Positions 8,363-52,043 are shown, numbered from the stretch's first letter. The stretch: DNA of 64,000 bases from Planctomycetota bacterium (GCA_024275565.1 JAJRYY010000009.1:636-64635); one strand, 5' to 3'. The notes: generated by a model not told the origin, from the sequence alone. Program-made: numbers and translations.

Positions 8363-8436
8363 TGGAACCCATCCGGCCCGGACGGAGCAAACCGGGATCC
8401 GGGCGGAGCAAACACGGGAGGATGACGCTTCTTCTG

Positions 8437-9000: not shown

Positions 9001-9092
9001 CTATCGCAACCTTTCTACAGACCCGCGAAATCCATCATTCCGCGAACCGGACTCCGTATTGTTCCATTTACCGCTGCTGTTCAGGCGAGATG

Positions 9093-25022: not shown

Positions 25023-25320
25023 GATATTGCTCGCACAGATGTACCTCGACCCGGCAGTTTTAGACTGCACTTTCAGGCTGCACCGGATCATTGATCCACA
25101 CGTCCATGATACCACGCCTCCAACACCTCCTTCAAGCACAATCGGCCCGAAAATACGCCTTCCCCTGACTTAATCCAGATCGCGCCGATCCATCGGAATT
25201 TCGGTCGTTCCGCCCTGATGCTGATTGGGTCCGATCTTGTCCCATCGCGCTCTGAGACTGAAGCGGATTGACATTCGTAACCGGATGACCCATCCTTGAT
25301 CCATGTAGCCAAGCCGCAGG

Positions 25321-25480
25321 GTGCCACTGGCGGCTTGCCCGCCAGTGCTTACGCAGGGTGCCGGGCCGTGTGGCCCACCTCTTCAGAGGTGGGGGAGCCG
25401 AAGATCAACCGAACATCCCCCAAGACCGCGTAAATCAATAGCAAAGCGCCGCGTGCCACTGGCGGCTTGTTCACCAGTGC
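25321..25480. repeat. composite REP-like element: two GTGCCACTGGCGG-CTTG-xCCGCCAGTG hairpins flanking a GTGGCCCAxxTCTTCAGAxxTGGGGGAGCCGAAGA module
   Basis: Hairpins at 25321-25348 and 25453-25480, with the central module at 25368-25411. The same modules recur at 46604-46792. Confidence 0.7.
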
Positions 25481-25506
25481 TTTTCCAACAGCGAAGCATA
25501 AACACA

Positions 25507-32055: not shown

Positions 32056-33468
32056 ATGAATCACGACCCTCAACGACATCGTTTGCACACGACCACCACC
32101 ATTGCTGCGACATTGATAGCAATTGCGGCTGGTTTACCTCTATCGCCGGCTGTGGCTGCCCCACCCAACAGTTACGCACCCGTCGTCGCCAGGGAAGATT
32201 TCCAGACGACGATGACGCGCATGAAAGCAGACAAAGCCAGAGTGATGAAAAAGCAGGCGAACCTGCTGGCTGAACGGTACGATCTGGACGACCATTCTGC
32301 AGGTAATCACAAAATGTCCATGGGCAAAAAGATCCAATCGGGCGTACGGGTCAAGCTTCAGCCGGGTATGACCTGGACTAAGCTTGCAAACATGACACCC
32401 GCCGAAATTCGCAGCTCGGGACTATTCCCAAAGGGTTTTCTGCCGCTGCCCCACCCCAATCACCCCGAAGGTGGCATGGTCTTCCCGCAATACCACATCG
32501 ACGAAATCAAGAAGCAGGAAGCACGCGACTTAACGCGTTTCGACCTTGACTACGATCTGCCCACCCACTTCCTGCCCGATTACCCGCCTGCGATCTACCT
32601 CACGACCAGGCCGGACCTCGGCGACGTCTCCCAGGGCAAAGTCGTCACCATCGACAACTACTATGAACTCTTCAACGGCATCTTGAACCCCAAGCAGATT
32701 GAGGGCATGCGACTTCTGGTGACGCCCTTCCCGCAGCAGCAGTTCAACCAGACCAGCGACCGCCGCTCGGAACGACCCCACCGTGGCGTCACCTGCTTCG
32801 ACTGCCATGTGAACGGTCACACCAACGCAGCCACACACCTCGTCGGCGACATCCGACCGCAGGAATTCCGACACGGTCTCGACACGCCGCCGCTCCGTGG
32901 CGTGTACATCCAACGACTCTTCGGTTCGCAGCGAGCATTGAAAACCGTAGAAGACTTCACCGAATTTGAGCAGCGGGCAGCCTATTTCGATGGCGACCAT
33001 GTCATCGCTGCCAAGAAGGGTGTCAATGTCCTCGAGCGCGGCAGCCAGGTCCACTTCATGGCTGAGATGGAGTCGATTCTCGATTTCCCGCCAGCGCCAA
33101 AACTGGACATCTTCGGCAAGCTGATTCCGAGCTTGGCCACCGAATCCGAAATGAGAGGACAAGCCGTATTCTTTGGCAAGGGACGCTGCTCAGAATGCCA
33201 TCCTGCACCGTTCTACACCGACAACCTCATGCACAACCTTAAGACGGAGCGATTCTTCAAACCGCACATGATCCATGGCAGAATGGCGTCAGCCGACGGA
33301 CCCATCAAGACCTTCCCACTCCGCGGCATCAAGGATTCACCGCCCTACCTGCACGATCGTCGCCTGCTCACGCTTGAGGACACGGTCGAGTTCTTCAATC
33401 TGGTGACGGGCGTGAATTTGAACACGCAGGAAAGATCAGACCTGGTAGCCTTCCTGCTAGCACTGTAG
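32056..33468 (+). CDS. di-haem cytochrome c peroxidase / MauG-family protein
   Basis: Two CxxCH haem motifs (CFDCH, CSECH) and a signal peptide. The start is set at the ATG at 32056 with an AGGGAG Shine-Dalgarno; the ORF track begins 41 codons earlier. Confidence 0.87.
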   Translation: MNHDPQRHRLHTTTTIAATLIAIAAGLPLSPAVAAPPNSYAPVVAREDFQTTMTRMKADKARVMKKQANLLAERYDLDDHSAGNHKMSMGKKIQSGVRVKLQPGMTWTKLANMTPAEIRSSGLFPKGFLPLPHPNHPEGGMVFPQYHIDEIKKQEARDLTRFDLDYDLPTHFLPDYPPAIYLTTRPDLGDVSQGKVVTIDNYYELFNGILNPKQIEGMRLLVTPFPQQQFNQTSDRRSERPHRGVTCFDCHVNGHTNAATHLVGDIRPQEFRHGLDTPPLRGVYIQRLFGSQRALKTVEDFTEFEQRAAYFDGDHVIAAKKGVNVLERGSQVHFMAEMESILDFPPAPKLDIFGKLIPSLATESEMRGQAVFFGKGRCSECHPAPFYTDNLMHNLKTERFFKPHMIHGRMASADGPIKTFPLRGIKDSPPYLHDRRLLTLEDTVEFFNLVTGVNLNTQERSDLVAFLLAL

Positions 33469-33732
33469 CACCCACACTGTAGCACTCGCACTGTAGCACC
33501 CGTTGCATCAACGCGGCGAAGGACGCCAACTTCCAGTCAATCCGAGGGTGCCACTGACGAACTGTCCGCCGGTGGCACCCTTTCTTTAGATACCATACAA
33601 TGACACGGAACATGCAGCAGAAAAGGATCAGCGTCGTGAATGAACCATCACTCTACGACCGTCTCGGTGGCTGTGAGGGCAGAATATATCGATGGTGGTT
33701 CAGGGCGTGGGAATCGAGGGGACAAAGAGCGA

Positions 33733-39511: not shown

Positions 39512-42500
39512 ATGCACAGGACGCTCTGTGGAACCGTTGTAATGTTGGCTGCCATACTCACCGGTGACGTGCTACTCGCACAATTCCAGGCCGGTCCGGT
39601 TTTACCAATCCTCGGCCCCATCAGGCAGGGAGGTTTTGAATGGCCTGATCAGGGTAACGATTTTGCGTACACGCCGGGAGGATCGTTTTGGGCATTCACT
39701 GGCGGAACCGGACTGGCCGGCAACGGCAGTGGGTTCACACGTTTCAATCCCCCCGCACCCCAGGGAGACCAGGTCTGCTTCATACAGAATGCTTCGAACA
39801 GCACAGTGAGTCAGAAATTCATATACCCCGCTGGCCGATACAGATTCAGGGTCAAAGCTGCCCAGCGCCTGCGAGGCAACGGAAATCTTGACCAGCAAAC
39901 TATCAGCTTGCGGATCGATGGCACGGAAATACTCAGCATCACCCCGCCCGATGAAAACTACACCCAGTACATCACCGATTATATTCTGCTGGACAGCTCG
40001 TCCCACGTGCTCACGTTTGTCGGCATGCAGAACGGTGGAAACTCCGCTTTTATCGACCAGGCGCAGGTTCAGTCCCTCAACGCAACCGCAGACAACTGGT
40101 CGGACCCAGGCACATGGCAGAATGGGGTCGTACCCGGTCCAACCGTGGATGCCACGATTCCCCTCGGCCAGACGGTTCTGCTGGATACTGACGCAAATGT
40201 CAAATCACTGACGGTCTTGGGATCGCTGTATTGCAAAGACGACGACGTATCCATCACAGCAAACTTCATCAATGTCTCAGGCTGGTTCGAATGTGGATCG
40301 GAAACAAGTCCACATCTTCAAAATATGACCATGACACTCAACGCGCCCCACAATCACCCTCCATGCACTCCGCCTGAAACTCCGAACTGTGAACAGACCA
40401 CCTGCGATACCCGATGCGATGGAACCTTTGAACCGTCGACGAAACACCTCATGGCCATACAAGGTGGAACCATCGAACTCCACGGCGAACCGCGTCTCAG
40501 CTGGACACAGATAAGCGCCACAGCAGCCGTCGGTGACACATCGATTACCGTCATTGACCCGGTCGACTGGCGCATCGGTGATCAGATTGTCATTGCACCC
40601 ACTTCAGAGAATACCAACGAAGGAGAAGAAGTCACCATTACCAACGTCAGCAACAACGGGCTGACCATAGATTTCACCCCAGGACTGCAATTCGAACATT
40701 ACGGAGAACAGACCACATACAACAACGGGGTGACTTCCTGGGTTCTCGATGAACGCGCGGAAGTGGGCCTGCTGACACGCAACATCGTGCTGAAGGCTGC
40801 CGAAGGAACAACTTCAGACGGTTACGGTGCACACATGATGACCATGAATGGTGCATTCTCCCGTGTCTCGGGCGTTGAGTTTTATCAGGTAGGCCAGGCA
40901 GGTCATCTCGCCCGATACCCCTTCCACTGGCACCTCGCAGGCGATGCCACCGGACAATACATCAGAAACTGCTCAATTCACAACAGTTACCACCGATGCG
41001 TCACCCTTCATGGAACCAACAACGCGGACATATCGGACAACGTATGTTACGATATCCTGGGACATGCCTACTTCATCGAAAATGGCACTGAAGTCGACAA
41101 CACATTCGATCACAACCTGGGAATCCTGACCAGAAAGGTACCGAAAGTAGATGCGGTACTCGAATCCGATTATCGCAATGGCTCTGCATCCAATGGTCCA
41201 GCCACCTTCTGGATTCGTCACCCGGACAACATCTACACGAACAATGCAGCCGCCGGTTCTGAGGGTTCGGGCTACTGGTACGGCATGCTTCAGGGCGATG
41301 ACTCACTATTTGCCCAGTTCGGGAAGTTTGAAAACAACCGTGTCCACTCATCTCGGCAGGGGTATACAGCCTGCAGCAACCCAAGCGGTCCACACGGAAT
41401 GAATCCACCAACACCGGCGGTTCTCCAGGGACTCACCGTCTCCAACTGCAAACAGGGGGTTTGGCCATGTGCAGCCAGCCAGACAGCAGAAAAGTCGATC
41501 TTCAAGAACATGATCGTCGCAAACTGCGAGAATGGATTTCAGGCACCCAATCCGGTCGCTCTGGAAGACTCGCTGTTTGTCGGGTATTCGAACAATGCCC
41601 CGCAGGCAGCCGAACTCGGTAGCAACTCAAACTGGCGAGGCGTTCAGGTATACGATCAGGGGTTCCTTTTCACCAATATACACTTTGAAAACTACGATCG
41701 CCCGTTCATGACGGCCTTCTTCCCAGGCGGAGGGGCCCACAAACATGCAAATAACCGCGCCATAGGCCTGACATTCAACAATGCCCCCAATGTATTCCTT
41801 GACCCAAACAACTTCTGGAAGATCGGCAACGTCCCCGGATGGTGGGGAGACGTGATACACGATCTCGACGGAAGTCTGGTAGGCGATGACTGGGCCTTCG
41901 TGGCAGGCCATCCCGTCATGTTCGATCGAACATGCACTCAGCCAACCAACATGAACACCGACGGATACGCATGCCCCTATCGCTATGCCCATTTCCGAAG
42001 CGAACACTTCGCCTCCATCGATCCGATCACCGTGATTCGGTCCGACGGCTATAGCAACACAAGTGGTCATATCAATGCCCGTTTCATCACGGAAATCATC
42101 ATGGATGACTCTTACTTCTACACATACCGCTACTCCACAGGGCTGAAGTTCAAAAAGCTTCAAGTCTCACTGCGGAACGCCTTCGGCGGCGACAACGCGG
42201 TGTACGAGTTCCTGGACGTCCCGTCGACCTTCAGCATTCCAACCAGCGGTTGGCAGCAGGCTTCTTCAGTGGACGATCTCATGACAGGCGCGGGACACCG
42301 ATATGTCTGGCGAGACCATTCGCTGTTCCTTAAGATGCAAGCCAGCGGTGATGACTGGCATGCGACCGACATAGTCGACATTTGCCTGAGAGACGTCAAT
42401 TGTGCACTAACGCATGAGGTAGGAACGCCACCTGTGGTAACGATCACCGCCCCACCGGACGGCGCTCGCTACCCCGTGGGTGCAGGCGTCATCGTACGAG

Positions 42501-43489
42501 CCAACATCACCGACCCATCTGGCAGCGCTCCCATTGTGTCTGCCCAGCTCTACCTGAACACCACCCTGATCGGTTCGGACATCGACTCACCCTACCTGTG
42601 GCGGCTGCTAAACATCCCGCAAGGCGACCACGTTCTCAAGGTCGTGGCGATCAATGCAAACGGCGACACATTTACACAGGTCCAGCAGATGTTCGGAGGC
42701 GATGTGCATCCACGCATCGAAATCACGTCCCACACGGACAACATGACCGTCAATGCAGACACGCCCATCACGATCGACTACGACCTCGCCAACTGGGGCG
42801 CCGCAGGTGAACATCTGCACTGGTACATCAACAATGAATACCAGGGCGACTTCACGCCGGGAACGCAGCTGATGATTCCAGTAAATGGATTGTCGCAAGG
42901 CGTCCAGGAACTGAAAATTGCACTGGCAGCCGCCGACGAAACCGTACTCGCCATCAATGACACTGTTCGGCTTTACGCCATGAAAAACTACCTCATCGCC
43001 GACTATGAAACCGGCGTCGATACGCGTACTTCTTTCACGGCTGACGATACGAACATAGGTCAGTTGTCAAAGATCAAGTTCGCATGGGGCACGCAGGAAC
43101 CGGAGGCTAGTTATGCCGATGGTCAGGACGACATCAACTACTTCGATGTCTACGACAATCAGGACGGCACGTTCGGGTTCGCAACATACCGACTCAATCT
43201 CGACCCGCAGCAGGACTGGTCGTCATTCATCAGCCTCGAGATAAGATCCAGCAGCAACCTCGATTTCGAGTGCTTCGTCGTGGATGCAACACAGGGTTCG
43301 ACCAGCCTGGGTTTCCGAACCACCGCCGGCTCCATCACAACGCTGGATCTGGAATTGCTTCCATCCACGCTCATCGACGAGGTTATCGCAATAGAGCTTC
43401 GTTTCGACGAGTCAACCATCGCCCCGGATACGTTCCATCGCCTGCATCTGGAGCATATTCGCCTGATAGAAGATCCAACTATCCCATAA
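39512..43489 (+). CDS. large secreted G8-domain / parallel beta-helix protein (CEMIP/TMEM2-like)
   Basis: Signal peptide at MHRTLCGTVVMLAAILTG, with a GGAAAGGAG Shine-Dalgarno. G8 motif WSDPGTWQNGVVPGPTVDATIPLGQTVLLDTD. CEMIP-like core ARYPFHWHLAGD...SIHNSYHRCVTLHG...GHAYFIENGTEVDNTFDHNLG. Confidence 0.85.
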   Translation: MHRTLCGTVVMLAAILTGDVLLAQFQAGPVLPILGPIRQGGFEWPDQGNDFAYTPGGSFWAFTGGTGLAGNGSGFTRFNPPAPQGDQVCFIQNASNSTVSQKFIYPAGRYRFRVKAAQRLRGNGNLDQQTISLRIDGTEILSITPPDENYTQYITDYILLDSSSHVLTFVGMQNGGNSAFIDQAQVQSLNATADNWSDPGTWQNGVVPGPTVDATIPLGQTVLLDTDANVKSLTVLGSLYCKDDDVSITANFINVSGWFECGSETSPHLQNMTMTLNAPHNHPPCTPPETPNCEQTTCDTRCDGTFEPSTKHLMAIQGGTIELHGEPRLSWTQISATAAVGDTSITVIDPVDWRIGDQIVIAPTSENTNEGEEVTITNVSNNGLTIDFTPGLQFEHYGEQTTYNNGVTSWVLDERAEVGLLTRNIVLKAAEGTTSDGYGAHMMTMNGAFSRVSGVEFYQVGQAGHLARYPFHWHLAGDATGQYIRNCSIHNSYHRCVTLHGTNNADISDNVCYDILGHAYFIENGTEVDNTFDHNLGILTRKVPKVDAVLESDYRNGSASNGPATFWIRHPDNIYTNNAAAGSEGSGYWYGMLQGDDSLFAQFGKFENNRVHSSRQGYTACSNPSGPHGMNPPTPAVLQGLTVSNCKQGVWPCAASQTAEKSIFKNMIVANCENGFQAPNPVALEDSLFVGYSNNAPQAAELGSNSNWRGVQVYDQGFLFTNIHFENYDRPFMTAFFPGGGAHKHANNRAIGLTFNNAPNVFLDPNNFWKIGNVPGWWGDVIHDLDGSLVGDDWAFVAGHPVMFDRTCTQPTNMNTDGYACPYRYAHFRSEHFASIDPITVIRSDGYSNTSGHINARFITEIIMDDSYFYTYRYSTGLKFKKLQVSLRNAFGGDNAVYEFLDVPSTFSIPTSGWQQASSVDDLMTGAGHRYVWRDHSLFLKMQASGDDWHATDIVDICLRDVNCALTHEVGTPPVVTITAPPDGARYPVGAGVIVRANITDPSGSAPIVSAQLYLNTTLIGSDIDSPYLWRLLNIPQGDHVLKVVAINANGDTFTQVQQMFGGDVHPRIEITSHTDNMTVNADTPITIDYDLANWGAAGEHLHWYINNEYQGDFTPGTQLMIPVNGLSQGVQELKIALAAADETVLAINDTVRLYAMKNYLIADYETGVDTRTSFTADDTNIGQLSKIKFAWGTQEPEASYADGQDDINYFDVYDNQDGTFGFATYRLNLDPQQDWSSFISLEIRSSSNLDFECFVVDATQGSTSLGFRTTAGSITTLDLELLPSTLIDEVIAIELRFDESTIAPDTFHRLHLEHIRLIEDPTIP

Positions 43490-43522
43490 GCACCAGGGGC
43501 AGTATTTCCAAAAAAAATGAGA

Positions 43523-43557
43523 AAGCCGGCTCGCGATCAAACATCGCGAGCCGGCTT
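43523..43557. terminator. bidirectional rho-independent terminator between convergent genes
   Basis: 15-bp stem AAGCCGGCTCGCGAT-CAAAC-ATCGCGAGCCGGCTT, flanked by an A8 run upstream and T-rich sequence downstream. Confidence 0.75.
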
Positions 43558-43641
43558 CTTCTCTATAAAAAAACGTAACCGGACCCCACATCCCAGCGAC
43601 AGGACATCCATCCAGATACGCAACGAGCGCCGAATCGATAA

Positions 43642-44775
43642 TCACGAATCATCGCCGCAGGCGCTACCAACCAGCCCGCGAATCTGCTCAGAAAGATCAC
43701 CACCTCCAAACACAAACGTCGAGCGCGTCCCGGAAAGAATCTCACCAAGCTGCTCAAACTCCTTCATCCGCGCAAGCGTAGGATTCTCAGCAAGCAACTT
43801 CGCAGTATTCGCCTGACTCCGTGCAGCAGCCGTCTCCTCACGACGCCGGATAAGGTTCGCCTGAGCAGACTTCTCAGCCTCAATCACCTGGTTCAGAATC
43901 GTCTTCATCTCACCAGGCAGTATGATGTCCTTAAGCCCAACGCTCTTGATGGCAACACCAAATCCCTGAGCGCGAGATGCAAGCGCATTCCGAACCTCAC
44001 CACTGACCGACTCCTTATCAGCAAGCAACGTATCCAGCGTCCGCGTACCAACAGCAGCCCGCAAAACAAGCTGTGCTTCACGGTACAACGCCTGACCATG
44101 GTCAGTCACAACGGTCACCGCCTTCACAGAATCAACAACCTGATACGCAACCAGAAGATTCACACGCAACGTAACCTTGTCCTTGGTCATGATCTCTTGG
44201 CCCGCAACATCCGCAACCTGCTCACGGCGATCAACAACGCTCCACCTCACACGTCCAACCGTGTTCCAGAAAACATGCCGGCCCTTACGAAGCGTCTCAA
44301 CAATCGCACCATCCTTAAACAACAACGCATCCTCATAATCGGAAACATCCACACTGATCAACCACTTGGACCCAACATCGAAAGCCATCACAGCATCCAG
44401 CTTCGCATGATCAAAACGCGGAACATCCGTATCGAACACCTCAACCTCAATCTTATAAGGCTCATTCCAGAACGCATGACGACCAGGCCCAACGATGTAC
44501 GCAAGGCGACCATCCTTCCAGACCAGAGCACGCTCATGGTCAGCAAGCTCGACAATCTTCAGAGCATCACGCATCGCCGCATCCTGAAGCAACACGTCCA
44601 ACAGCGGATGCTCGAACCGGGTCAACAGCGTACTCACAACGCCGATCCGATGACGCGTACGACTCCACAGAGAGCTCCACAGACGGTACTTACCCGGTTC
44701 CAGCAGCCGGACGAAATCGCCATACTCAAACAACAAACCCTTCTCATAAGACTTAATCCGCGTCAATCCAAACAT
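43642..44775 (-). CDS. SPFH/band-7 (slipin-like) protein with a triplicated N-terminal module and no obvious TM anchor
   Basis: SPFH core (VTLRVNLLVAYQVVD...LKDIILPGEMKTILNQVIEAEKSAQANLIRRREETAAAR). The start is set at the ATG at 44775, 10 nt after an AAGGAGG Shine-Dalgarno. Confidence 0.87.
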   Translation of the reverse strand: MFGLTRIKSYEKGLLFEYGDFVRLLEPGKYRLWSSLWSRTRHRIGVVSTLLTRFEHPLLDVLLQDAAMRDALKIVELADHERALVWKDGRLAYIVGPGRHAFWNEPYKIEVEVFDTDVPRFDHAKLDAVMAFDVGSKWLISVDVSDYEDALLFKDGAIVETLRKGRHVFWNTVGRVRWSVVDRREQVADVAGQEIMTKDKVTLRVNLLVAYQVVDSVKAVTVVTDHGQALYREAQLVLRAAVGTRTLDTLLADKESVSGEVRNALASRAQGFGVAIKSVGLKDIILPGEMKTILNQVIEAEKSAQANLIRRREETAAARSQANTAKLLAENPTLARMKEFEQLGEILSGTRSTFVFGGGDLSEQIRGLVGSACGDDS

Positions 44776-45144
44776 ACTCACGACACCTCCTTTCAACATA
44801 CATCCCGCACGAACTTCCGACCTATATCAACCGTCCAACAATGAACGCAAAATCTAAAATCGCAGGTTGAAGGGTGACCCTCACGATCTGTCCCGAGTTC
44901 GCAACGGAGTCGAGTTTAAGACGCACCAGCAACCACCTCGACCTTATACTTCCGGAAGGTGTCTCGATACCCGGTTACAGGGCGTCGATGGTGCTGGCAC
45001 GTCGGTATCCACCCGACTTCAAAGATACTTACACGGCGCCAACGATGTACCATGCAATCGAAACCGCATGACGCACCACCGATGGCTGACAAAATCGCTA
45101 AATCACTCCCAAAACCTGCTTTTCAAAGCGACTTTTCAGCCGCT

Positions 45145-45215
45145 CAAGAGGGGCGGGATTCGAACCCGCTACCGCACGGTTAAACCGTGTGCTCTTACCA
45201 GATGAGCTACCCAGG
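45145..45215 (-). ncRNA. tRNA-like element B (class-I-like, 5-nt anticodon loop, degenerate 5' acceptor strand)
   Basis: Canonical D arm (TAGCTCATCTGGTAAGAGCA) and T arm (GCGGGTTCGAATCCCGC). The anticodon arm is CACGG-TTTAA-CCGTG. The 3' acceptor strand CCCTCTT pairs with the 5' strand only at GGG/CCC plus one terminal pair. Confidence 0.6.
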
Positions 45216-45298
45216 TGGTCTGGACAGGAATCGAACCTGCTTCACTGTAAGGTGACAGCCCTTAACAGGCTGCGCTCGACCATCGAGCATCCAGAACC
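45216..45298 (-). ncRNA. tRNA-like element A (class-II-like with a 15-nt variable arm and non-canonical positions 4, 8 and 33)
   Basis: GGTTCTGG-AT-GCTC-GATGGTC-GAGC-G-CAGCC-TGTTAAG-GGCTG-TCACCTTACAGTGAA-GCAGG-TTCGATT-CCTGT-CCAGACC-A. The acceptor stem needs a bulged T. G replaces U33 and A replaces U8. Confidence 0.6.
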
Positions 45299-45503
45299 GA
45301 TATTGTTTCCGATGCCGTTCACGGTACACGCCACAGATAAATCCAGCACACAAATCCACCGGACCCAAAACGCGCCGCCGGCACAACATCGGTTTGACCC
45401 AATCTATACACCTTCCACATCTATACATCTTCCACGCAACCCGCACATCGCGGATGTCAATGGACCTGTAACCCGTCAGAGTCACACGATAGTCACACGA
45501 TAA

Positions 45504-46520
45504 TTACGCGATAGATATAACGATGGCGCGACTGTCCTCACGTTCCGTTTCGATCTCAACGTCAAGAAACTTACCAATCAGATCAACATGCGTTTCAGAA
45601 TGACGAGACAATCCCGTAGACCGAAACGTTCCAGACCCCGCGATCGCCATCGGCAGCAACAACTGATCCGTCAGATACTCTCCAACCGGAGCAGATGACC
45701 GAAGATAACGCTGACACTGCTGAACCGCATGGGAAGCGACAGCCTCAGCAGCTCGACCAACCTCACCGAAACCCGTAAAAACTTCCGTCACGTTCTCATA
45801 CCCAAGCTCGATCGTCACAATATTTCCAGGACCCACAGGGCGATCGATCTCAACAACTTCCGCTTCACCCTCATCCCAACCGAGACGCTTCCGCATGACG
45901 CGAACTTCCCGATCAGCGATCTTCCGATCAAGACTCGATACAACCGCCCGCCCACATCGCCGCACCAGATCGCCACGCTCCACAATGCTGATCCCACCGA
46001 AAGATTCAGCAGGTGTCACATCCACAACCATACGTCCCCCACCCGCCGGATAGAACCCATACCTCTCAAGGGTCACCGATACCTTCGGACCCATCCGATT
46101 CACAAGCGGAAGGTACGACCGCTCAAGAAAGTCAAACGGAGGTGCATACGGATTATGCGTCCCGCCCTCAAGCACGATCCGACTCGGCGCTTTCGCAAGT
46201 GCAAGCGGAAGCAAAATCGTCTGCAGCACAAGCGTCGTACTACCCGCCGTCCCAATACTGAACGTATAATCACCACCCACAGCCACACCCGGAACAAACA
46301 CCAGCTCGGTCGAACCCATCTCATCGCCCTCGACCTTACACCGCCCAATCTCAGCAGCAGCACGGACAGCCGTAAGGTGTTGTCGCAGCAGTCCGGGCTT
46401 CCTCCGCTTCGCACGAATATTCTCAATTCGAAACGCCCTACCCGTAACGATCGACAGCGCAAGGGACGATCGCAATATCTGCCCCCCGCCTTCACAAAAT
46501 GAACCATCAACCGTCAACAT
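45504..46520 (-). CDS. rtcA: RNA 3'-terminal phosphate cyclase
   Basis: MLTVDGSFCEGGGQILRSSLALS N-terminus and full-length RtcA similarity. The start is set at the ATG at 46520 with an AGGAGG Shine-Dalgarno; the ORF track begins 15 codons earlier. Confidence 0.92.
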   Translation of the reverse strand: MLTVDGSFCEGGGQILRSSLALSIVTGRAFRIENIRAKRRKPGLLRQHLTAVRAAAEIGRCKVEGDEMGSTELVFVPGVAVGGDYTFSIGTAGSTTLVLQTILLPLALAKAPSRIVLEGGTHNPYAPPFDFLERSYLPLVNRMGPKVSVTLERYGFYPAGGGRMVVDVTPAESFGGISIVERGDLVRRCGRAVVSSLDRKIADREVRVMRKRLGWDEGEAEVVEIDRPVGPGNIVTIELGYENVTEVFTGFGEVGRAAEAVASHAVQQCQRYLRSSAPVGEYLTDQLLLPMAIAGSGTFRSTGLSRHSETHVDLIGKFLDVEIETEREDSRAIVISIA

Positions 46521-46603
46521 CACAACAACCTCCTGGAAAGAACAATTCATCGACAGGGCGACCATGTCTTCCTAACAACAGGGCGCCCATATCTTCTTCA
46601 ACA

Positions 46604-46792
46604 GTGTGGCCCATGTCTTCAGACATGGGGGAGCCGAAGACCACCCGCACAGCAACCCAAACTCTAGCCAAGCCTCAGGGTCCACTGTACGGACCACCAT
46701 CACAACATAAAACGGGTCCCACCGGCGACTCGTCCGCCAGCGTGCTTCATCACAGCATAAAACGGGTGCCACTGGCGGCTTGTCCGCCAGTG
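46604..46792. repeat. REP-like hairpin cluster inside the rtcB-rtcA spacer
   Basis: Module GTGGCCCATGTCTTCAGACATGGGGGAGCCGAAGA (46604-46646), hairpin GGTCCACTGTACGGACC (46679-46697), and a tandem ~50-bp duplication with one CCACyGGCG...CGCCAG hairpin in each copy (46714-46742 and 46766-46792). Confidence 0.8.
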
Positions 46793-46850
46793 TCTATAAC
46801 AAACACAACCATCGCATCCCACACAGCACCCCAGACACACCACAACCACC

Positions 46851-48347
46851 TCAATCATCCGCCGCAGAAGCATCCTTAATCACAAAACGCGCCTTCAACC
46901 GTGCAACCTCAGAAGCCAGCCCGGCAAGCTTCACAGAACGAAGCACCTCATCAAAATCCTTATAGACAGCCGGGGCTTCATCCATCGGATAATTCCGGCA
47001 ATTCGTCATAATATCGCACGTCTCGAACGACGCATTGATCGACTTCTGATCCAGCGACCGGATCGCGGCTTTGCGACCCATCACGCGTCCGGCACCATGA
47101 TTCACACTGTAACAACTAATCTCCGCACCCTTATCCGCCACCATGACAGCCGACCCCCGCTGCGGATCACCCGGCAGCAAAATAGGATGCCCGCTCTTGG
47201 CAAACGGCGTATCCTTCAACGCATAATGACCACCAGGAAACGCCCGGGTCGCACCCTTACGCATCACCCAGGAAGGTCGGTTATTCACAATCTCCTTCCG
47301 CGCAATATTATGACTGATGAGGTAAACCAGCTCACCAGACACACCCGGAATGACCTCCTGAAAAGCCTCCAGCACAAGCGCGTTAATCAGCAGATGATTC
47401 ACAGTCGCAAAATTCGCTCCCATGGACATATCATCGATATAAGCATTCGCCTCAGGCGTCCCAAGCGGTGCATAACACAAATGCCTGTCATTCCCAGGAT
47501 ACTCTATACCCCACCGGTCAAACTTCCGCTGCAACGCCTGAAACTGTCCCATAGCAAGGTTGTGACCAAATCCACGCGATCCACAGTGCGAGAGAAACGC
47601 GACATGCTTATCCCGCAGCCCGAAGGTCTCAGCACAGTGCTTCGCCCGGCTGTCATCACCAACCTCCACCACCTCACACTCGCCAAAATGATTACCGCCA
47701 CCATACGACCCAAGCTGCGTAACCTTCTCCCTGAACTTCGGAAACGCCCCGGAGTGCAGTAGCCAGTCGAGTCGAGCACCCAGCGCATCCCGGGTTTCAT
47801 CGTGTCCCAGGTGGAAAGAGTCCTCACAACGCGTCGCCCACCGTGCAGGGACACCCATCGCCTCACAAACCCCCTGCGACGCACCTTCGATCGCAACGCG
47901 TCTCCCCAGCGGCTCGCCCACATGCCTCGATTTTCGGACGCTGCGCTGGCCCCGCCCCGCTCCCGTAGGCGTCCGCTCACAAATCGCCTCAATCACCGCC
48001 CGCCGGGTACGACGATCCAGAACCTCATTTTCAGGCAAATCAAGCTGCAATAAGCTCATGGAACACTTGATATCCACGCCTACGGGACCGGGGTAGATGT
48101 GGGAGGCGGAGGCCATCACGCAGCCAATGGGGGCGCCATACCCGATATGGGCATCGGGGTTCAGTACCACTTCATCCACGCCGGGGGCGAGGCGGGCATT
48201 GACCACCTGCTGCAAAGTGGCGTCATCAAACGTATCAAGGATAGCCTCGGTCCCAATAACCGTTATTGGCTTCACCTTACCGTCAGCCACCGGCAAAATA
48301 GACGTTGCCGCACCCGTACTCACCAGTCTGTTCGTATGCTTCGCCAT
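46851..48347 (-). CDS. rtcB: RNA-splicing ligase RtcB
   Basis: Metal and GMP-site motifs NPDAHIGYG, GGGNHFGE and SHCGSRGFGH. The start is set at the ATG at 48347 (MAKHTNR), with a GAGGAG Shine-Dalgarno 7 nt upstream. Confidence 0.95.
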   Translation of the reverse strand: MAKHTNRLVSTGAATSILPVADGKVKPITVIGTEAILDTFDDATLQQVVNARLAPGVDEVVLNPDAHIGYGAPIGCVMASASHIYPGPVGVDIKCSMSLLQLDLPENEVLDRRTRRAVIEAICERTPTGAGRGQRSVRKSRHVGEPLGRRVAIEGASQGVCEAMGVPARWATRCEDSFHLGHDETRDALGARLDWLLHSGAFPKFREKVTQLGSYGGGNHFGECEVVEVGDDSRAKHCAETFGLRDKHVAFLSHCGSRGFGHNLAMGQFQALQRKFDRWGIEYPGNDRHLCYAPLGTPEANAYIDDMSMGANFATVNHLLINALVLEAFQEVIPGVSGELVYLISHNIARKEIVNNRPSWVMRKGATRAFPGGHYALKDTPFAKSGHPILLPGDPQRGSAVMVADKGAEISCYSVNHGAGRVMGRKAAIRSLDQKSINASFETCDIMTNCRNYPMDEAPAVYKDFDEVLRSVKLAGLASEVARLKARFVIKDASAADD

Positions 48348-48385
48348 CAGAATACTCCTCACGTTCCATGTGTACTGATAACCAT

Positions 48386-48402
48386 AAGCACCCTGCGTGC
48401 CA
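48386..48402 (-). promoter_or_regulatory. sigma-54 (-24/-12) promoter of rtcBA
   Basis: The minus strand reads TGGCACgcagggTGCTT, with correct GG-N10-GC spacing, about 40 nt upstream of the rtcB ATG and facing the divergent rtcR. Confidence 0.78.
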
Positions 48403-48498
48403 GTTAGTCAAGTGTTGATTTATGGTGAAAAACGCCTGTGTGGTGCTGCGGATTTCCGAAAAGTTGATAAATCTGGATAGTTTTTTATAATCCTCGCT

Positions 48499-50106
48499 AT
48501 GTTGAACGTCGCAATCGGAATGCTGGGCATGATGCGGGATCGCGGGGATGGACCGGATCGGTGGTCGCAATGGCGCCCTACTGTGTCTTTGTGTCAGCAC
48601 GAGGATCTGTTGATCAGCCGTCTCGAACTGCTCGTCGAGACAGGATCGATGGATCTGGCGAATCGGGTGGCAGCCGACGTTCGCTCGGTATCCCCCGAGA
48701 CCGAAGTTCGCCTCCATATGATCGAATTTGGCGATCCATGGGACTTCGAGAATGTCTACAGCGTCCTGCACGGGTTTGCCCTGGATTACCAGTTTGACAC
48801 CGATCAGGAGCGGTATCTGATTCATGTGACCACGGGTACCCATGTCGCTCAAATCTGCACCTACCTGCTGACGGAATCCCGGCATCTTCCCGGGCGGTTG
48901 ATTCAGACGGCGCCTCCGAAGCGGCGTAGTTCTGGGCAGGCTGGCCGGTATACGATTATTGATCTGGATTTGTCGAAATACGATCGAATCGCGCAGCGTT
49001 TTGAAAGCGAGCAGCGCGAAGGATCTGAATTCCTGAAGGCTGGGATTCAGACGCGTAATGTTGCTTTTAATCGCATGATTGACGAGATCGAATATGTGGC
49101 GATCCACTCGCGGGCGCCGATCCTGCTGACGGGTCCGACGGGGGCGGGGAAGTCGAGTCTCGCCCGTCGTATCTTTGATCTGCGGAAGTTGCGGAACAAC
49201 GTTGCGGGTCGTTTTGTGGAGGTCAACTGTGCGACCTTGCGTGGTGACGGAGCGATGTCTGCTCTTTTTGGTCATACGCGTGGATCGTTCACGGGGGCTG
49301 CTCAGGATCGGGCTGGATTGCTGAAGGAAGCCCACCTTGGGATTCTGTTTCTTGATGAGGTTGGCGAGCTGGGTCTGGATGAACAGGCGATGCTCTTGCG
49401 GGCTGTCGAAGAGCATCGTTTTCTTCCGCTTGGATCGGACAAGGAGGTCAGCAGTGATTTTCAGCTGATCTGCGGTACGAATCGCGACCTCGGGGCTGAT
49501 GTCCGGTCGGGTCGATTTCGCAACGATCTGTTGTCCCGGATCAACCTCTGGGCATTTGAACTGCCGGGGTTGGCGCAGCGGCGTGAGGATATTGAACCGA
49601 ACGTTCATTTTTCTCTTGAGCAGGTCACGGTTGCGACGGGCCATCGTTTTCGGTTCAACAAGGAGGCATTGGATATGTTTCTGCGGTTTGCGGAATGTCC
49701 GGATACCCCCTGGACCGGGAATTTTCGAGACCTCGACGCTGCCATAGCCCGGATGGCGACCTTGGCGCCGTCCGGGAGGATTACGGAGGAGGCGGTGGAT
49801 CGTGAGATTGATCGCCTCAAGCGGTCGTGGCGTGATTCTGGAACGTCTGCTTCGGTCGATGGTACGCATGTTCTGGAAGCCCTGCTGGGAGACAGGCTGG
49901 ACGACCTTGACGAATTCGACAGGGTTCAACTCGAGCGTGTGGTGCTGGTCTGTATGGAGTCGCGGTCCTTGTCGGTGGCTGGCCGTCGTTTGTTCGCTGC
50001 CTCAAGGCGTAAGCGGAAGGCGCCGAACGATGCGGATCGCCTTCGGAAGTATTTGTCGCGGTATCGACTGGACTGGTCCATGGTGAAAGACGCTCTTCCC
50101 GGGTGA
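48499..50106 (+). CDS. rtcR: sigma-54-dependent transcriptional activator RtcR
   Basis: RtcR-type N-terminal (CARF-like) domain, AAA+ core with Walker A GPTGAGKS and the sigma-54 contact loop GSFTGA, and a C-terminal HTH. It is divergent from rtcB. Confidence 0.92.
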   Translation: MLNVAIGMLGMMRDRGDGPDRWSQWRPTVSLCQHEDLLISRLELLVETGSMDLANRVAADVRSVSPETEVRLHMIEFGDPWDFENVYSVLHGFALDYQFDTDQERYLIHVTTGTHVAQICTYLLTESRHLPGRLIQTAPPKRRSSGQAGRYTIIDLDLSKYDRIAQRFESEQREGSEFLKAGIQTRNVAFNRMIDEIEYVAIHSRAPILLTGPTGAGKSSLARRIFDLRKLRNNVAGRFVEVNCATLRGDGAMSALFGHTRGSFTGAAQDRAGLLKEAHLGILFLDEVGELGLDEQAMLLRAVEEHRFLPLGSDKEVSSDFQLICGTNRDLGADVRSGRFRNDLLSRINLWAFELPGLAQRREDIEPNVHFSLEQVTVATGHRFRFNKEALDMFLRFAECPDTPWTGNFRDLDAAIARMATLAPSGRITEEAVDREIDRLKRSWRDSGTSASVDGTHVLEALLGDRLDDLDEFDRVQLERVVLVCMESRSLSVAGRRLFAASRRKRKAPNDADRLRKYLSRYRLDWSMVKDALPG

Positions 50107-50114
50107 GTTGAGAA

Positions 50115-50250
50115 ATGGTCCGTACAGTGGGCCCTGCGTCGCGGGACAGGAGATGGTCCGCACAGCGGACCCTGCATCACGGTGGTCCATGTGTCGTGGG
50201 ATTCGTAATGGTCTGTACAGTGGACCCTGCGTCACGGTGGACCCTGCGTC
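50115..50250 (+). repeat. 3.5 copies of the ATGGTCCGTACAGTGGACCCTGCGTC hairpin repeat immediately after the rtcR stop
   Basis: Copies at 50115, 50153 and 50208, plus a partial copy at 50236. The middle copy carries paired substitutions that turn two G-T pairs into G-C pairs. Confidence 0.8.
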
Positions 50251-50321
50251 ACTTTGGAACGGCCACAGTCGGGGGCGGCTGTGCTACATATGCCCTCGCA
50301 TTCACATCTTCGGCAAAGCTG

Positions 50322-51635
50322 TCAGGGGCAGCCTGCGCCCATTCCCGTGAAGACTGATTGAAATGCGCTGTAATCGTCGAGGTCGACATCGCTGTCGGCA
50401 TCGGCGTCAAAACATGCACACTCTGGGGGCAATGCAGCACCGGTCGTGTCAAAACAGGCCTGGAACAAGGCGAAATCGGAGATATCGACATCACAATCGG
50501 CATCGATATCCTGCGGTGGATCGTTACAACCCGATTCGCAATCGTCGGCTATACCGTTGGAGTTGTCGTCTGCACAATCTGTTTCAAACCCGGCCCATGC
50601 GCTGTTGGGGATGATGCTGCAATCCGCATCGGTCAATATAAGACAGTTTCCATTGCTGAGGCAACACGCGCCTTGGGGTTGTGGGCAGATCACGTCATCA
50701 CAGACACTGTCATTCCCCTGAAATACACCGCCCGCAGCTTCACATACATCCGGCGGAACCTCCTCCACACACTGACCTGCCGGCATGCAACACGCACCGG
50801 CTGCGAAGCACTCTATCGCATCGCAGGTCGTCCCCACACCCTGTCGAAATCCTTTGGCGGCGATGCAGTTTTCCGCCGTCAGATCGAGACAACCACCGGA
50901 GAGAAAACAGCACGCCTCCATGGGGTCCGGGCAGTCTATGATACCGCAATCTGTGTTGTTGCCCTGGTAGACCCCGCCAAGCCCGACACACAAACCGCTC
51001 GAAACACCATCCTGACACTCGCCGGTCGGAAGACAGCACCCCCCCATCGGAGCAGCACAATCGACCACCGCACGAATCGCTACATCGCCCTGAAGAAAAG
51101 TGCAAAAATTGATCCACCCCCCCTGAAACGGAGCGAACAACGCATTGCGCCCGCCTTGGCAACCATCTGTATCTCGCAGGATGCTGGGTGTTCCAGCCAG
51201 GATGTTCGTCGCATTCCCGAACTCCAGCGACACAACAAACACTTCACCCTCACTGACGGAGATTGCAAATGGCGTCCCTGCCTTGTCGATGCTGCGGAAC
51301 TCGTTGAGGCTTCCCGGTGTGAGGACCGGACCTTCGAGCTGCAACAGGACCGCTCCTGGGTCGGGAAATGCGCCCTGCGCATAGACCCACATGTTCTCCT
51401 CTAATGTGGGGATGGCTGCTGCGTCTGCTGAAAACCATAAAATCTGGAGTGCAACGATATCCCCATCACAGGGAGAGGTCAGCCAGGCAGCGACCTGCTC
51501 ACTGGCATCGAAATCGCCGACAAGCACCGCCTGCCCGAAATCCACGATCGAATCGTTCAGGACGACCTGCTCCTGTGCGTGGGCCAGTGCAGCAGACATC
51601 GCCAACACAAGAAACCCGTTGAATGTGTTTCTCAT
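50322..51635 (-). CDS. secreted protein with four Cys-rich ~40-aa modules and a C-terminal dockerin/EF-hand-like tag
   Basis: Signal peptide (MRNTFNGFLVLAMSAALAHA) from the ATG at 51635. Modules have the form xxCC..G.C......C...GG.(F/Y)QG....C....C. C-terminus DIDADCDVDISDFALFQACF...FDADADSDVDLDDYSAFQSVFTG. Confidence 0.75.
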   Translation of the reverse strand: MRNTFNGFLVLAMSAALAHAQEQVVLNDSIVDFGQAVLVGDFDASEQVAAWLTSPCDGDIVALQILWFSADAAAIPTLEENMWVYAQGAFPDPGAVLLQLEGPVLTPGSLNEFRSIDKAGTPFAISVSEGEVFVVSLEFGNATNILAGTPSILRDTDGCQGGRNALFAPFQGGWINFCTFLQGDVAIRAVVDCAAPMGGCCLPTGECQDGVSSGLCVGLGGVYQGNNTDCGIIDCPDPMEACCFLSGGCLDLTAENCIAAKGFRQGVGTTCDAIECFAAGACCMPAGQCVEEVPPDVCEAAGGVFQGNDSVCDDVICPQPQGACCLSNGNCLILTDADCSIIPNSAWAGFETDCADDNSNGIADDCESGCNDPPQDIDADCDVDISDFALFQACFDTTGAALPPECACFDADADSDVDLDDYSAFQSVFTGMGAGCP

Positions 51636-51964
51636 GATATCAACTCGTTGAACCATAGATCGACTGCATAGCATCATCTTTTTATCGGACCTCGTTACAG
51701 CAAACTCACTTGATCGCACACACATGCACCTGTCGCACGTTCATGCACCTGTCGCATGTCGCGGACAACGCGAGACGCACCAGGTTATTCTTGCAAAGCA
51801 CATGACGATTTTCAATGCGATAATGAGATAAAGGTGCGAACTCGCCAGTTTCGCACGCTGGAAGTGTCATCAATTGAAGAATTTGCACCCTTTGACGGTG
51901 CGAAATCCGCCTTTCATCGCCGGAAGCAATGTGCCGGCTGGGTCGTTTGCTTCAGTGGATGGTA

Positions 51965-52043
51965 TCGCACGCTCTGGTGTAGCATCACGCTCTGGTGTGC
52001 ATCTTGCTCTGGTGTGGGATTTTGCTCTGGTGTGCATCTTGCT
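51965..52043. repeat. about 4.5 copies of a 17-18-bp tandem repeat directly downstream of the TPR-gene stop
   Basis: The core gctctggtgt occurs at 51971, 51989, 52006 and 52024. Confidence 0.75.

Follow-up and report, generated by a model that had tools for sequence, protein, structure and literature searches.

The rtcR–sigma-54–rtcBA RNA-repair operon of E. coli was reportedly described by Genschik in 1998. The arrangement is documented in E. coli and Salmonella (Hughes 2020, PMC7790460; Kotta-Loizou 2022, PMC9650030). The Salmonella operon, rsr-yrlB-yrlA-rtcBA, also includes a Ro60 orthologue and Y RNAs (PMC4201824, PMC7790460). A further RtcB system, the Band-7/b7a-tRNA type, was predicted by Burroughs and Aravind in 2016 and is summarised in 10.1101/312249; that summary states that b7a-tRNA expression and Band-7 binding were not experimentally validated. 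In P. aeruginosa, the SPFH gene PaFlo8 is placed inside an rtc locus (PMC13086221). A different group of elements, the GTAG-tagged REPs, has been reported in Planctomycetes. These REPs are located for the most part downstream of coding regions, and G-T pairs are frequent in their stems, suggesting that they are transcribed; REPs also stabilise the upstream mRNA (PMC3733652).

The window analysed here is the whole 64-kb stretch of Planctomycetota DNA. It contains a genuine RNA-repair operon with predicted RtcR/sigma-54 control, a new planctomycete example of a known operon type. The gene order is rtcB, rtcA, a structured tRNA-like RNA and a Band-7/SPFH gene, with rtcR divergent from rtcB and rtcA, which share one strand (Table 1). 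The Pfam and NCBIfam assignments bear out the complete module with divergent rtcR that an earlier note had recognised. As in E. coli and Salmonella, the divergent regulator combines an N-terminal CARF-type RtcR domain with a sigma-54 AAA+ activator domain, here together with a lid domain; a -24/-12 promoter is present, and the RtcB ligase and RtcA cyclase belong to one operon. Unlike these systems, the window RtcB is of the long archaeal type, rtcB and rtcA are 330 nt apart and the operon extends past rtcA to a structured RNA followed by a Band-7 gene. RtcB does not reach the cut-offs of the NCBIfam models for the E. coli type; among solved structures, those of Pyrococcus horikoshii RtcB and Thermus TTHA1785 are closest to it. 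From the sequence, the start of rtcB is most likely ATG 48347, which is preceded by GAGGAG and is favoured over GTG 48362. The rtcA start, ATG 46520, is identical in relatives and has the strong Shine-Dalgarno sequence AGGAGG 8 nt ahead of it (46528-46533). The Band-7 homologues, like the window protein, have 377 residues.

Table 1. Position of the features discussed in the text, counted from the first nucleotide of the window.
Feature	Position	Strand	Evidence or remark
rtcR	48499-50106	+	Pfam PF06956 and PF00158; NCBIfam NF038308 RtcR equivalog, 775 bits (cut-off 650)
rtcR promoter, sigma-70 type, TTGATA - 16 nt - TATAAT	48464-48491	+	11/12 consensus matches
rtcB-operon promoter, sigma-54 -24/-12 type, TGGCACGCAGGGTGCTT	48386-48402	-	GG-N10-GC spacing
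rtcB, long archaeal-type RNA ligase, 498 aa	46851-48347	-	Pfam PF01139, E = 4e-99
rtcB-rtcA spacer, made up of REP-like palindromes in mosaic and locally duplicated tandem units	46521-46850	-	exactly 330 nt
Two tandem 50-nt units, each with a family-B hairpin	46698-46793	-	repeat D3
Family-A REP, TGGTCCGTACAGTGGACCCTG, putative member of the GTAG-REP superfamily (GYAG-tagged type)	46676-46696	-	21-mer matches
Family-D motif, CCCTGAGGCTTGGCTAG, overlapping the family-A REP tail	46665-46681	-	94% match to 25306-25322
Family-C element, UCUUCGGCUCCCC-hairpin-CCACAC, containing the 9-bp hairpin	46604-46640	-	89% match to 25368-25404
Three tandem ~25-nt units, GAAGAYATGGKCGCCCTGT	46553-46620	-	Tandem Repeats Finder: period 25, 2.8 copies
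rtcA, RNA 3'-phosphate cyclase, 338 aa	45504-46520	-	Pfam PF01137 and PF05189; NCBIfam equivalog, 434 bits (cut-off 352)
Conserved structured RNA, ~570 nt, Band-7-associated (b7a) RNA	44830-45402	-	between rtcA and the Band-7 gene
tRNA-like module 1	45214-45297	-	ARAGORN tRNA-Stop(UUA)
tRNA-like module 2	45150-45212	-	Rfam tRNA, 40.6 bits (cut-off 29)
Band-7/SPFH gene (slipin family), 377 aa, final gene of the unit	43642-44775	-	Pfam PF01145
Cluster of 3-4 family-A REPs, just past the rtcR stop, between convergent genes	50116-50257	+	
Second mosaic (family B twice, C and D), upstream of a peptidase M28 gene, unrelated intergenic region	25306-25480	-	

The sigma-54 element lies 38 nt ahead of the rtcB ATG, where the earlier note had placed it at about 40 nt. 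It is kept in six related loci, among which the GG never varies and the -12 TG(C) is preserved for the most part. Transcription of the rtcB operon is predicted to depend on RtcR and RpoN. The two upstream GTTGAT(T/A)(T/A)AT motifs, read on the other strand as ATWWATCAAC (48463-48472 and 48412-48421), are indeed present, but the enhancer role proposed for them is not supported. The first, GTTGATAAAT, is the -35 box (TTGATA) of the promoter of rtcR itself, and the second is not kept among relatives. In alignment A3, the five relatives with sequence over this stretch all keep both boxes of the rtcR promoter and their distance from the start codon. Because only 7 nt lie between the end of the -10 box and the ATG, the rtcR mRNA is probably leaderless. 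Neither an RtcR-binding upstream sequence nor an IHF site was identified at the operon.

The rtcB stop and the rtcA start are separated by the distance given in the earlier note (about 330 nt), and the hairpins that it described for this spacer are found there. The spacer contains two tandem copies of a 50-nt unit (46748-46793 and 46698-46743) that are 87% identical. Each copy carries a family-B hairpin, CACUGGCGG-ACRAG-YCGCCRGUGGSACCC (46763-46790 and 46713-46740). The duplication had been described with a CUGGCGG...CCGCCAG hairpin in both copies; this is the case for copy 1 (CUGGCGG-ACAAG-CCGCCAG), whereas the arm of copy 2 differs (CUGGCGG-ACGAG-UCGCCGG), so that two pairs are now G-U. The GGUCCGUACAGUGGACC hairpin is located at 46694-46678 of the minus strand. 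The perfect 9-bp hairpin, CCCAUGUCU-GA-AGACAUGGG, is located at 46629-46610 of the same strand, and the TC loop formerly attributed to it is the plus-strand reading of GA. Three tandem units of about 25 nt, absent from the earlier note, are derivatives of the family-C hairpin's 3' arm.

These palindromes are not restricted to the spacer. The family-A 21-mer hairpin and the family-B 28-mer hairpin each have four matches in the window, against 0.00 expected. Family A is found as exact matches in more than 114 loci from genomes of Planctomycetaceae, Pirellulales and Phycisphaerae, including at least 27 contigs of one MAG, where copy numbers refer to relatives and to the 64-kb window and not to the whole source genome. 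The identical 21-mer is shared across several Planctomycetota orders and its copies are often inverted pairs. Further family-B copies lie at 25318-25345 and 25450-25477 of the window, and others, with compensatory stem variants, are found in other planctomycete loci. The family-C copies likewise differ by compensatory stem changes (CCCATGTCT/AGACATGGG versus CCCACCTCT/AGAGGTGGG). All window copies are extragenic and clustered (46521-46850, 50107-50321 and 25140-25506). The fallback reading of the earlier note, a landing pad for REP-like repeats, is therefore upheld by the presence of the same repeats in unrelated intergenic DNA of the window and across Planctomycetota genomes.

The closest described elements are the GTAG-REPs and BIMEs (Di Nocera 2013, PMC3733652), with which the window elements share a size of 20-30 nt, imperfect palindromy, an extragenic and mostly gene-downstream location, clustering, mosaic organisation, G-T stem pairs and occurrence in Planctomycetes. 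The stems have 7 and 9 bp, with compensatory or G-U variants among the copies. The tag was checked for family A only: the partner copies of other genomes read GTAGGGTCCGCTGTGCGGACC (GTAG), whereas those of the window read CAGG (start of the reverse complement of the spacer copy) or GCAG (copies after rtcR, GYAG class), not GTAG. All window copies of families A-D are oriented in the sense of the upstream gene, the only strand on which G-U pairing accommodates their stem variants; for these two reasons, the hairpins may have some RNA-level function. Both family-A sites of the window are next to rtc genes, and a local connection could be suspected from this; no rtcB, rtcA or Band-7 gene occurs in the more than 114 loci of other genomes, and no such link is seen there.

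The comparison with relatives likewise favours an accumulation of repeats, since spacing and sequence of the junction are not conserved. In L200, with the same operon layout and an RtcB 82% identical, the gap is 48 nt. In L201, also with the same layout, it consists of 190 unrelated nt. In L197 rtcB and rtcA overlap (the contig ends inside rtcA), and cargo genes occupy the junction in L195, L196, L199, L205 and L140. L202 carries an N6-adenine methyltransferase-like gene immediately 5' of rtcA, and rtcB is not within the 4.5 kb examined. No homologue of the spacer was found among relatives; by contrast, the intergenic RNA between rtcA and the Band-7 gene is 77% identical at the nucleotide level between the window and L200. 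The spacer is thus very probably an ordinary, lineage-specific pile-up of dispersed REP-like palindromes and not the non-coding RNA gene of the operon.

The cargo genes of the relatives raise the alternative that the spacer is what remains of a decayed gene once placed between rtcB and rtcA and later colonised by REPs, given that a DUF5677 gene, a 431-aa ORF or a methyltransferase-like ORF lies in or beside the slot. This is very improbable: tblastn with the DUF5677 protein of L195 and the 431-aa protein of L196, the only two queries used, gave no spacer match at E <= 10, and the repeats and their duplications explain roughly two thirds of the spacer length. A small protein encoded here deserves practically no credence. 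Sense-strand ORFs of 54-66 aa do exist, but they have no significant Pfam match, are not conserved in relatives and are shifted in frame by the 50-nt and 25-nt repeats; the ribosome-binding site is found at rtcA only.

The leading proposal of the earlier note, a processed structured RNA or an attenuator, is not supported, given the lack of a counterpart in close relatives, of an Rfam match at E <= 10 and of a terminator-like site in the spacer. A processed stable RNA corresponding to the Salmonella Y RNAs YrlA/YrlB would be suggested by analogy with rsr-yrlBA-rtcBA (PMC7790460) and by the several stable hairpins. This reading is extremely improbable, as neither sequence nor length is kept in relatives, each hairpin belongs to a dispersed repeat family and the tRNA-like RNA of the operon is located elsewhere (45402-44830). 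ARAGORN found no tRNA in the spacer. A search for YrlA (Rfam RF02553) returned nothing in the spacer and, in the window, only a partial 25.6-bit match (cut-off 69) at 45191-45244. In addition, the Rsr proteins encoded in L115, L122 and L145, used as tblastn queries, detected no Rsr (Ro60/TROVE) gene in the 64-kb window. The related metagenomic loci L122 and L145 do contain rsr, and YrlA at the Rfam gathering score.

Under the preferred reading, the accumulation of REP-like palindromes, the spacer would have been built from at least four dispersed families, at a junction that varies within the operon family, and local tandem duplications (2 x 50 nt and 3 x 25 nt) would have added to its length. 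We infer that the spacer is transcribed within the polycistronic mRNA from the sigma-54 promoter and that rtcA is translated from its own AGGAGG site. The hairpins would at most behave as REPs do, as 3'-exonuclease barriers or partial pause sites that shift the rtcB:rtcA ratio. A rival that overlaps with this explanation, and differs solely in claiming a selected function, is that the REP hairpins have been co-opted as a lineage-specific cis-element. As a barrier that stabilises the mRNA, or as a partial attenuator, this element would uncouple rtcA and the downstream part from rtcB. The stability of the hairpins, their sense orientation and G-U-compatible stem variants, the reported stabilisation of upstream mRNA by REPs (PMC3733652) and the separate Shine-Dalgarno of rtcA agree with co-option. 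It is nevertheless rather unlikely, because relatives cope with a 48-nt gap or with overlapping genes, and the spacer as a whole folds with just a modest advantage over shuffled sequences (z = -1.7). Besides, no hairpin is followed by a U-run, and a scan of 44500-50500 for an intrinsic terminator or attenuator (a GC-rich hairpin with a U-run) found no terminator-like site in 46521-46850. Co-option of the sense-oriented hairpins, which may set the rtcB:rtcA ratio, is the sole reading of the spacer left that goes beyond the ordinary.

The non-coding RNA of the operon is most probably the ~570-nt one that separates rtcA from the Band-7 gene. The Salmonella-style embedded RNA evoked by the earlier note thus exists, not in the spacer but downstream of rtcA and outside the 45504-50106 region considered at the time. 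In this RNA, a conserved 5' stem domain encloses the tRNA-like modules (one or two, depending on the locus; two in the window), and a long-range helix of 18 bp, formed by 45102-45119 with 44862-44880, closes the 3' domain. The RNA is kept in six planctomycete loci (alignment A4), for which RNAalifold predicts 163 pairs. In this alignment 92.6% of the cells are paired and 46 pairs show compensatory change; shuffles give 22 +/- 3 such pairs and slid controls 7-12. With an nhmmer profile, strong full-length matches (E <= 1e-88) are obtained only beside Band-7 genes; the weak remaining ones cover the tRNA-like stretch only.

The two modules differ in their resemblance to tRNA. Module 2 has canonical D and T arms, a 3-bp acceptor and an anticodon arm consisting of a 6-bp stem with a triloop, and is kept in all six planctomycete loci. 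Module 1 has a long variable arm, G33 and an acceptor stem flawed by a mismatch or bulge. Its "anticodon" is UUA in the window and AAG, GAA or UGA in relatives, and in L200 deletions have removed its D, anticodon and variable arms. Owing to the varying "anticodon" and these deletions, module 1 is not a decoding tRNA; a suppressor or decoding role was rejected on these grounds and on G33 and the acceptor flaw. A single tRNA-like module lies at the matching position in L117, L124 and L134.

The tRNA-like RNA lies directly upstream of the Band-7 gene, and the RtcB/RtcA neighbourhood is recurrent: the Band-7 gene adjoins rtcA in L200, L201, L202 and L205 and rtcA-rtcB in L117, L124 and L134, whereas in L206 both the RNA and the Band-7 gene occur, but no rtc genes. 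The unit follows rtcB-rtcA in the window and precedes rtcA-rtcB in L117, L124 and L134. Judged from its sequence, the locus is a match to the predicted Band-7/b7a-tRNA type of RtcB system, with the RNA immediately upstream of the Band-7 gene in an RtcB/RtcA/RtcR neighbourhood. It differs from the b7a-tRNA as summarised in 10.1101/312249 in that the tRNA-like part is doubled and included in a ~570-nt RNA with a long-range closing helix. Like rsr-yrlBA-rtcBA of Salmonella, it has a non-coding RNA with a tRNA-like domain inside an RtcR-controlled operon, but this RNA is placed after rtcA and before the Band-7 gene and has about five times the length of YrlA. We tentatively suggest, as a possibility somewhat short of probable, that the partner RNA of Band-7 is a ~570-nt form of the predicted b7a-tRNA, previously undescribed at full length, which would be co-transcribed from the RtcR/sigma-54 promoter and, by analogy with Ro60 and Y RNA, may be a scaffold or decoy RNA for repair by RtcB/RtcA at a membrane-associated Band-7 assembly.

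The genes of the rtc operon were checked by ORF list, sequence reading and domain searches, and the rtcR/rtcB/rtcA module described in an earlier note on this DNA is upheld by the ORFs and by the domain and equivalog scores (table). The rtcB start is most likely the ATG at 48347, preceded by GAGGAG, and AGGAGG lies 8 nt before the rtcA ATG. The RtcB protein is of the long archaeal/Thermus type, with Pyrococcus horikoshii RtcB and Thermus TTHA1785 as its best matches of solved structure. The loci arranged as Band-7 - rtcA - rtcB use a short RtcB, just 28-31% identical to the type found here.

Features of the rtc operon region and of the rtcB-rtcA junction in related loci (L-numbers denote loci of other genomes or metagenomes, with their own coordinates)
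Feature	Position	Strand	Description
rtcR	48499-50106	+	PF06956 and PF00158; 775 bits (RtcR equivalog cut-off 650)
rtcR promoter, with the approach to the ATG	48464-48499	+	TTGATA, 16 nt, TATAAT
sigma-54 -24/-12 element	48402..48386		TGGCACGCAGGGTGCTT
rtcB	46851-48347	-	498 aa; PF01139
rtcB-rtcA spacer	46521-46850		330 nt
rtcA	45504-46520	-	338 aa; PF01137 and PF05189; 434 bits (NCBIfam equivalog cut-off 352)
Structured RNA	45402-44830	-	about 570 nt, placed by an nhmmer profile
tRNA-like module 1	45214-45297	-	ARAGORN 'tRNA-Stop(UUA)'; Rfam tRNA-Sec 31.6 bits, below the cut-off of 47
tRNA-like module 2	45150-45212	-	Rfam tRNA 40.6 bits against a 29-bit cut-off
Band-7/SPFH gene	43642-44775	-	3' of the tRNA-like elements; domain search
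Junction in L197 (RtcB 85%)			rtcB/rtcA overlap
Junction in L154			about 10 nt
Junction in L182			about 42 nt
Junction in L200 (RtcB 82%; same rtcB-rtcA-RNA-Band-7 layout)			48 nt
Junction in L145, L149			about 110-130 nt
Junction in L201 (Band-7 83%)			190 unrelated nt
Junction in L115			about 310 AT-rich nt
Junction in L122			about 510 AT-rich nt
Junction in L195, L205	7515-8309; about 320-1100		DUF5677 gene
Junction in L196, L199	3642-4937; 1588-1698		unannotated 431-aa ORF
Junction in L140	about 388-915		small N6-adenine-methyltransferase-like ORF

The divergent region between rtcR and rtcB contains two promoters. The sigma-54 promoter that had been proposed for rtcB is confirmed: the element has the GG-N10-GC spacing, lies 38 nt 5' of the rtcB ATG and is kept in six loci (TGGCACGCAGGGTGCT, TGGCACGCCGAGTGCT, TGGCACGCAGAATGTC, CGGCACACGTGATGCT, TGGCACACGGAATGAC and TGGTACGGATAATGTT). 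On the other strand, rtcR is preceded by a sigma-70-type promoter with 11 of the 12 consensus positions matched, and its two boxes and their spacing to the ATG are common to the five relatives whose aligned sequence covers the region. The -10 box ends 7 nt 5' of the ATG, which implies a leaderless rtcR mRNA. Two further motifs had been regarded as possible enhancer sites. The upstream one (48463-48472) falls at the position of the rtcR -35 box, and the second (48412-48421) adjoins the -24 element and is not conserved, so the enhancer reading is unsupported.

The gap between the rtcB stop and the rtcA start measures exactly 330 nt and is as rich in repeats and hairpins as had been described. 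It carries a 50-nt tandem duplication (copies 87% identical, one 7-bp hairpin each), the GGUCCGUACAGUGGACC hairpin and a 9-bp hairpin, as well as three tandem units of about 25 nt that the earlier list lacked. Two of the hairpin patterns have four matches each in the window against 0.00 expected, far above chance, and the fold of the whole spacer is no more than modestly better than that of shuffled sequence (z = -1.7). The reading first favored for this segment was a structured RNA or an attenuator. Rfam was searched across 44000-52000 with a limit of E <= 10, across 42500-45600 with a limit of E <= 1, and in the whole window at the gathering threshold; none of these searches gives a match in the spacer. 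The single ARAGORN call of the whole window lies outside the spacer, no terminator-like or sigma-70 promoter-like site was found inside it by a scan for both, and four spacer ORFs have no significant Pfam match. The family-B sequences CAGTGGCAC were considered as internal sigma-54 promoters and rejected, with a GG-to-GC spacing of 12 rather than 10 and no correctly placed -12 GC.

The earlier note had suggested comparing the spacing and the conservation of this junction in related genomes. Two sets of loci were used: 80 metagenomic loci with RtcA 50-58% identical, among which several operon layouts occur, and close relatives from protein searches, in which identity reaches 86% for RtcB and 83% for Band-7 and whose best hits suggest a source in Planctomycetota. 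Where the long RtcB type is shared, the junction proved hypervariable, from an overlap of the two genes to several hundred nucleotides or an inserted gene (table), and the spacer sequence has no counterpart in the related loci; a blastn-short comparison with the 80 RtcA-related loci returned chance 13-14-mers only. In L207, the closest relative (RtcB 86%), a REP-like hairpin of another kind begins 23 nt past the rtcB stop; the contig breaks off within this hairpin, 49 nt from rtcB, and so gives no gap length. A degraded copy of one of the inserted genes was also considered, and tblastn with two of their products, DUF5677 from L195 and the 431-aa protein from L196, finds no remnant of either in the spacer. 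With no similar spacer at any related locus and the scans negative, the spacer is a lineage-specific filling of a variable slot and not a conserved RNA gene or attenuator.

The junction seems to be a hotspot for accessory genes of RNA repair or conflict. A methyltransferase-like gene similar to that of L140 stands directly 5' of rtcA in L202 (2208-2609), where no rtcB occurs within the 4.5 kb fetched. In L196 (RtcB 83%), a tRNA-Ser(GCU)-like element (5997-6071) comes right after rtcA, followed at 6091-9633 by genes for a 789-aa protein that matches nothing in Pfam and for a Hen1-type methyltransferase. The arrangement resembles a composite repair locus of Rtc and Hen1.

The origin of the hairpins is indicated by their distribution, which bears out the fallback reading of the earlier note, a landing pad for REP-like repeats. 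Every spacer hairpin in the earlier list belongs to a dispersed repeat family. The family-A 21-mer TGGTCYGYACAGYGGRCCCTG has one copy in the spacer and three directly after the rtcR stop (50116, 50154 and 50209). A scan for exact 21-mer matches, with one genome per species, found it in more than 114 stretches, nearly all, among the matches listed, from Planctomycetaceae, Pirellulales and Phycisphaerae genomes. A single MAG contributes at least 27 different contigs. In the scan as a whole, copies are often paired head-to-head with a partner reading GTAGGGTCCGCTGTGCGGACC. RtcB, RtcA or the Band-7 protein is encoded at none of the 114 loci among the matches listed, and the window itself matches none of them. 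GTAG/GYAG-tagged REPs are known from many phyla including Planctomycetes, and are mostly located downstream of genes, clustered, with frequent G-T stem pairs (Di Nocera et al., PMC3733652). The family-A distribution fits the pattern of such REPs.

The family-B hairpin of the 50-nt units (CACTGGCGGRCAAGCCGCCAGTGGCACCC) has two further copies in the window (25318-25345 and 25450-25477) and many relatives in planctomycete loci, with compensatory stems such as CTGCTGG/CCAGCAG and CTGGGTG/CACCCAG. When the spacer was compared with the window by short-word BLAST, the 9-bp hairpin and its flanking sequence (family C, 46604-46640) were found to match 25368-25404 with compensatory stem changes, and the short motif CCCTGAGGCTTGGCTAG (family D, 46665-46681) matches 25306-25322. 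Families B to D recur elsewhere in the window, at 25306-25480, and families A and B in planctomycete genomes; such a scatter of the repeats is the second of two signs by which the earlier note would know an ordinary REP insertion. The arrays of 2 x 50 nt and 3 x 25 nt come from local duplication of repeat-family units. The spacer is ordinary and matters little in itself. An eye-catching, hairpin-rich gap within an operon can be the mere colonization of a variable gene junction by REPs.

Several other repeats were observed. The segment 25306-25480 (-) is a second mosaic, with two family-B copies and one each of families C and D; it lies 5' of a peptidase M28 gene and has an unrelated ORF on its other side. 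Between the rtcR stop and the convergent gene, three to four direct family-A copies lie 38-55 nt apart (50116-50257, +), and the stem changes among them (C to U, A to G and a double U to C) leave pairing on the sense strand intact in every case. At 33458-33580 (-), three tandem copies of GGTGCTACAGTG stand beside a family-B-like hairpin, GGTGCCACCGGCGGACAGTTCGTCAGTGGCACC. REP families are more often confined to one species or genus, and for this reason the presence of an identical 21-mer core (TGGTCCGCACAGCGGACCCTG) in Planctomycetaceae, Pirellulales and Phycisphaerae (L001-L114) looks unusual. A literature search found no paper with this core sequence.

The conserved RNA of the operon lies on the other side of rtcA. 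Directly 3' of this gene, and on the strand of the operon, Rfam and ARAGORN detect two tRNA-like elements side by side, with a weak partial YrlA match across their junction. The rtcA-to-Band-7 intergenic region shares 77% identity with its counterpart in L200 and can be aligned across six planctomycete loci. From this alignment RNAalifold predicts 163 base pairs, with 92.6% of cells paired and an 18-bp long-range helix (45102-45119 with 44862-44880). Compensatory changes are seen in 46 pairs, against 22 +/- 3 in column shuffles (none of 500 reaching 46) and 7-12 in slid controls. The evidence for a conserved RNA structure of about 570 nt, 5' of the Band-7 gene, is strong. Strong full-length nhmmer matches occur only beside Band-7 genes, the weak remaining ones covering the tRNA-like stretch only, and apart from the partial tRNA-type and weak YrlA matches on the two modules the RNA has no Rfam family match. 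It is probably the full-length form of the predicted Band-7-associated tRNA-like RNA (b7a-tRNA).

The two modules differ in their conservation. All six planctomycete loci have module 2. Module 1 has G33, a flawed acceptor stem and an 'anticodon' that is UUA, AAG, GAA or UGA depending on the locus, and in L200 it lacks the D, anticodon and variable arms; it is no decoding tRNA. Its reading as an ochre suppressor or a tRNA-Sec-like gene was rejected on the sub-threshold tRNA-Sec score and on an anticodon arm that is unconserved and deleted in L200. Three more distant loci (L117, L124 and L134), with the order rtcR, divergent from a sigma-54 promoter, RNA, Band-7, rtcA and rtcB, have one tRNA-like module at the matching position, and share with the RNA described here a 5' stem and a hairpin after the module.

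Further observations concern the surroundings of this RNA. An extra tRNA-like match is found just 3' of the Band-7 gene in L202 (5723-5781) and L205 (5767-5825), where the window has none. A perfect 14-nt palindrome, GGATTC(T/G)AGAATCC, separates the rtcA stop from the start of the RNA in L200 (about 3545-3560) and L201 (about 4085-4100); the window has 11-nt and 17-nt tandem repeats instead (45402-45435 and 45480-45514). In L206 (4012-5640), the RNA with a single tRNA-like module and a Band-7 gene occur with no rtc gene within 4.5 kb, so that the pair can stand alone.

The operon is of the Band-7/tRNA-like-RNA type, a known, predicted operon type. The prediction is that of Burroughs and Aravind (2016), as summarized in a Wolin laboratory preprint (10.1101/312249); in this summary the Band-7/tRNA-like RNA unit appears interchangeable with Rsr/YrlA, and the type stands as a computational prediction without experimental validation as of 2018. 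An SPFH gene is also embedded in the rtc locus of P. aeruginosa (PMC13086221). Other relatives have rsr and YrlA in place of the Band-7 gene and its RNA, the YrlA of L122 and L145 reaching the Rfam gathering score, and YrlA-like T-arm motifs lie 5' of rtcA in many further loci; no Rsr gene is found in the 64-kb window. In its length of about 570 nt and its architecture, with two tRNA-like modules and a 3' domain that is closed, the RNA may be new relative to the published description, a claim that we hold with rather more doubt than confidence.

In Salmonella, the signal that activates RtcR consists of tRNA fragments ending in 2',3'-cyclic phosphate (PMC7790460). Activated RtcR would drive a single transcript from 48386-48402 that spans rtcB and rtcA, with the REP mosaic between them, and then the b7a RNA and the Band-7 gene. 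The REP hairpins would be passengers, which at most might keep 3' exonucleases off the rtcB segment or lower downstream expression a little. By analogy with YrlA and Rsr, the b7a RNA may be processed and become the partner of the Band-7 protein. The RNA that contains the tRNA-like element is much larger than this element and is strongly supported by covariation; its precise coordinates and structural model can serve experiments on the role of tRNA-like RNAs in bacterial RNA repair.
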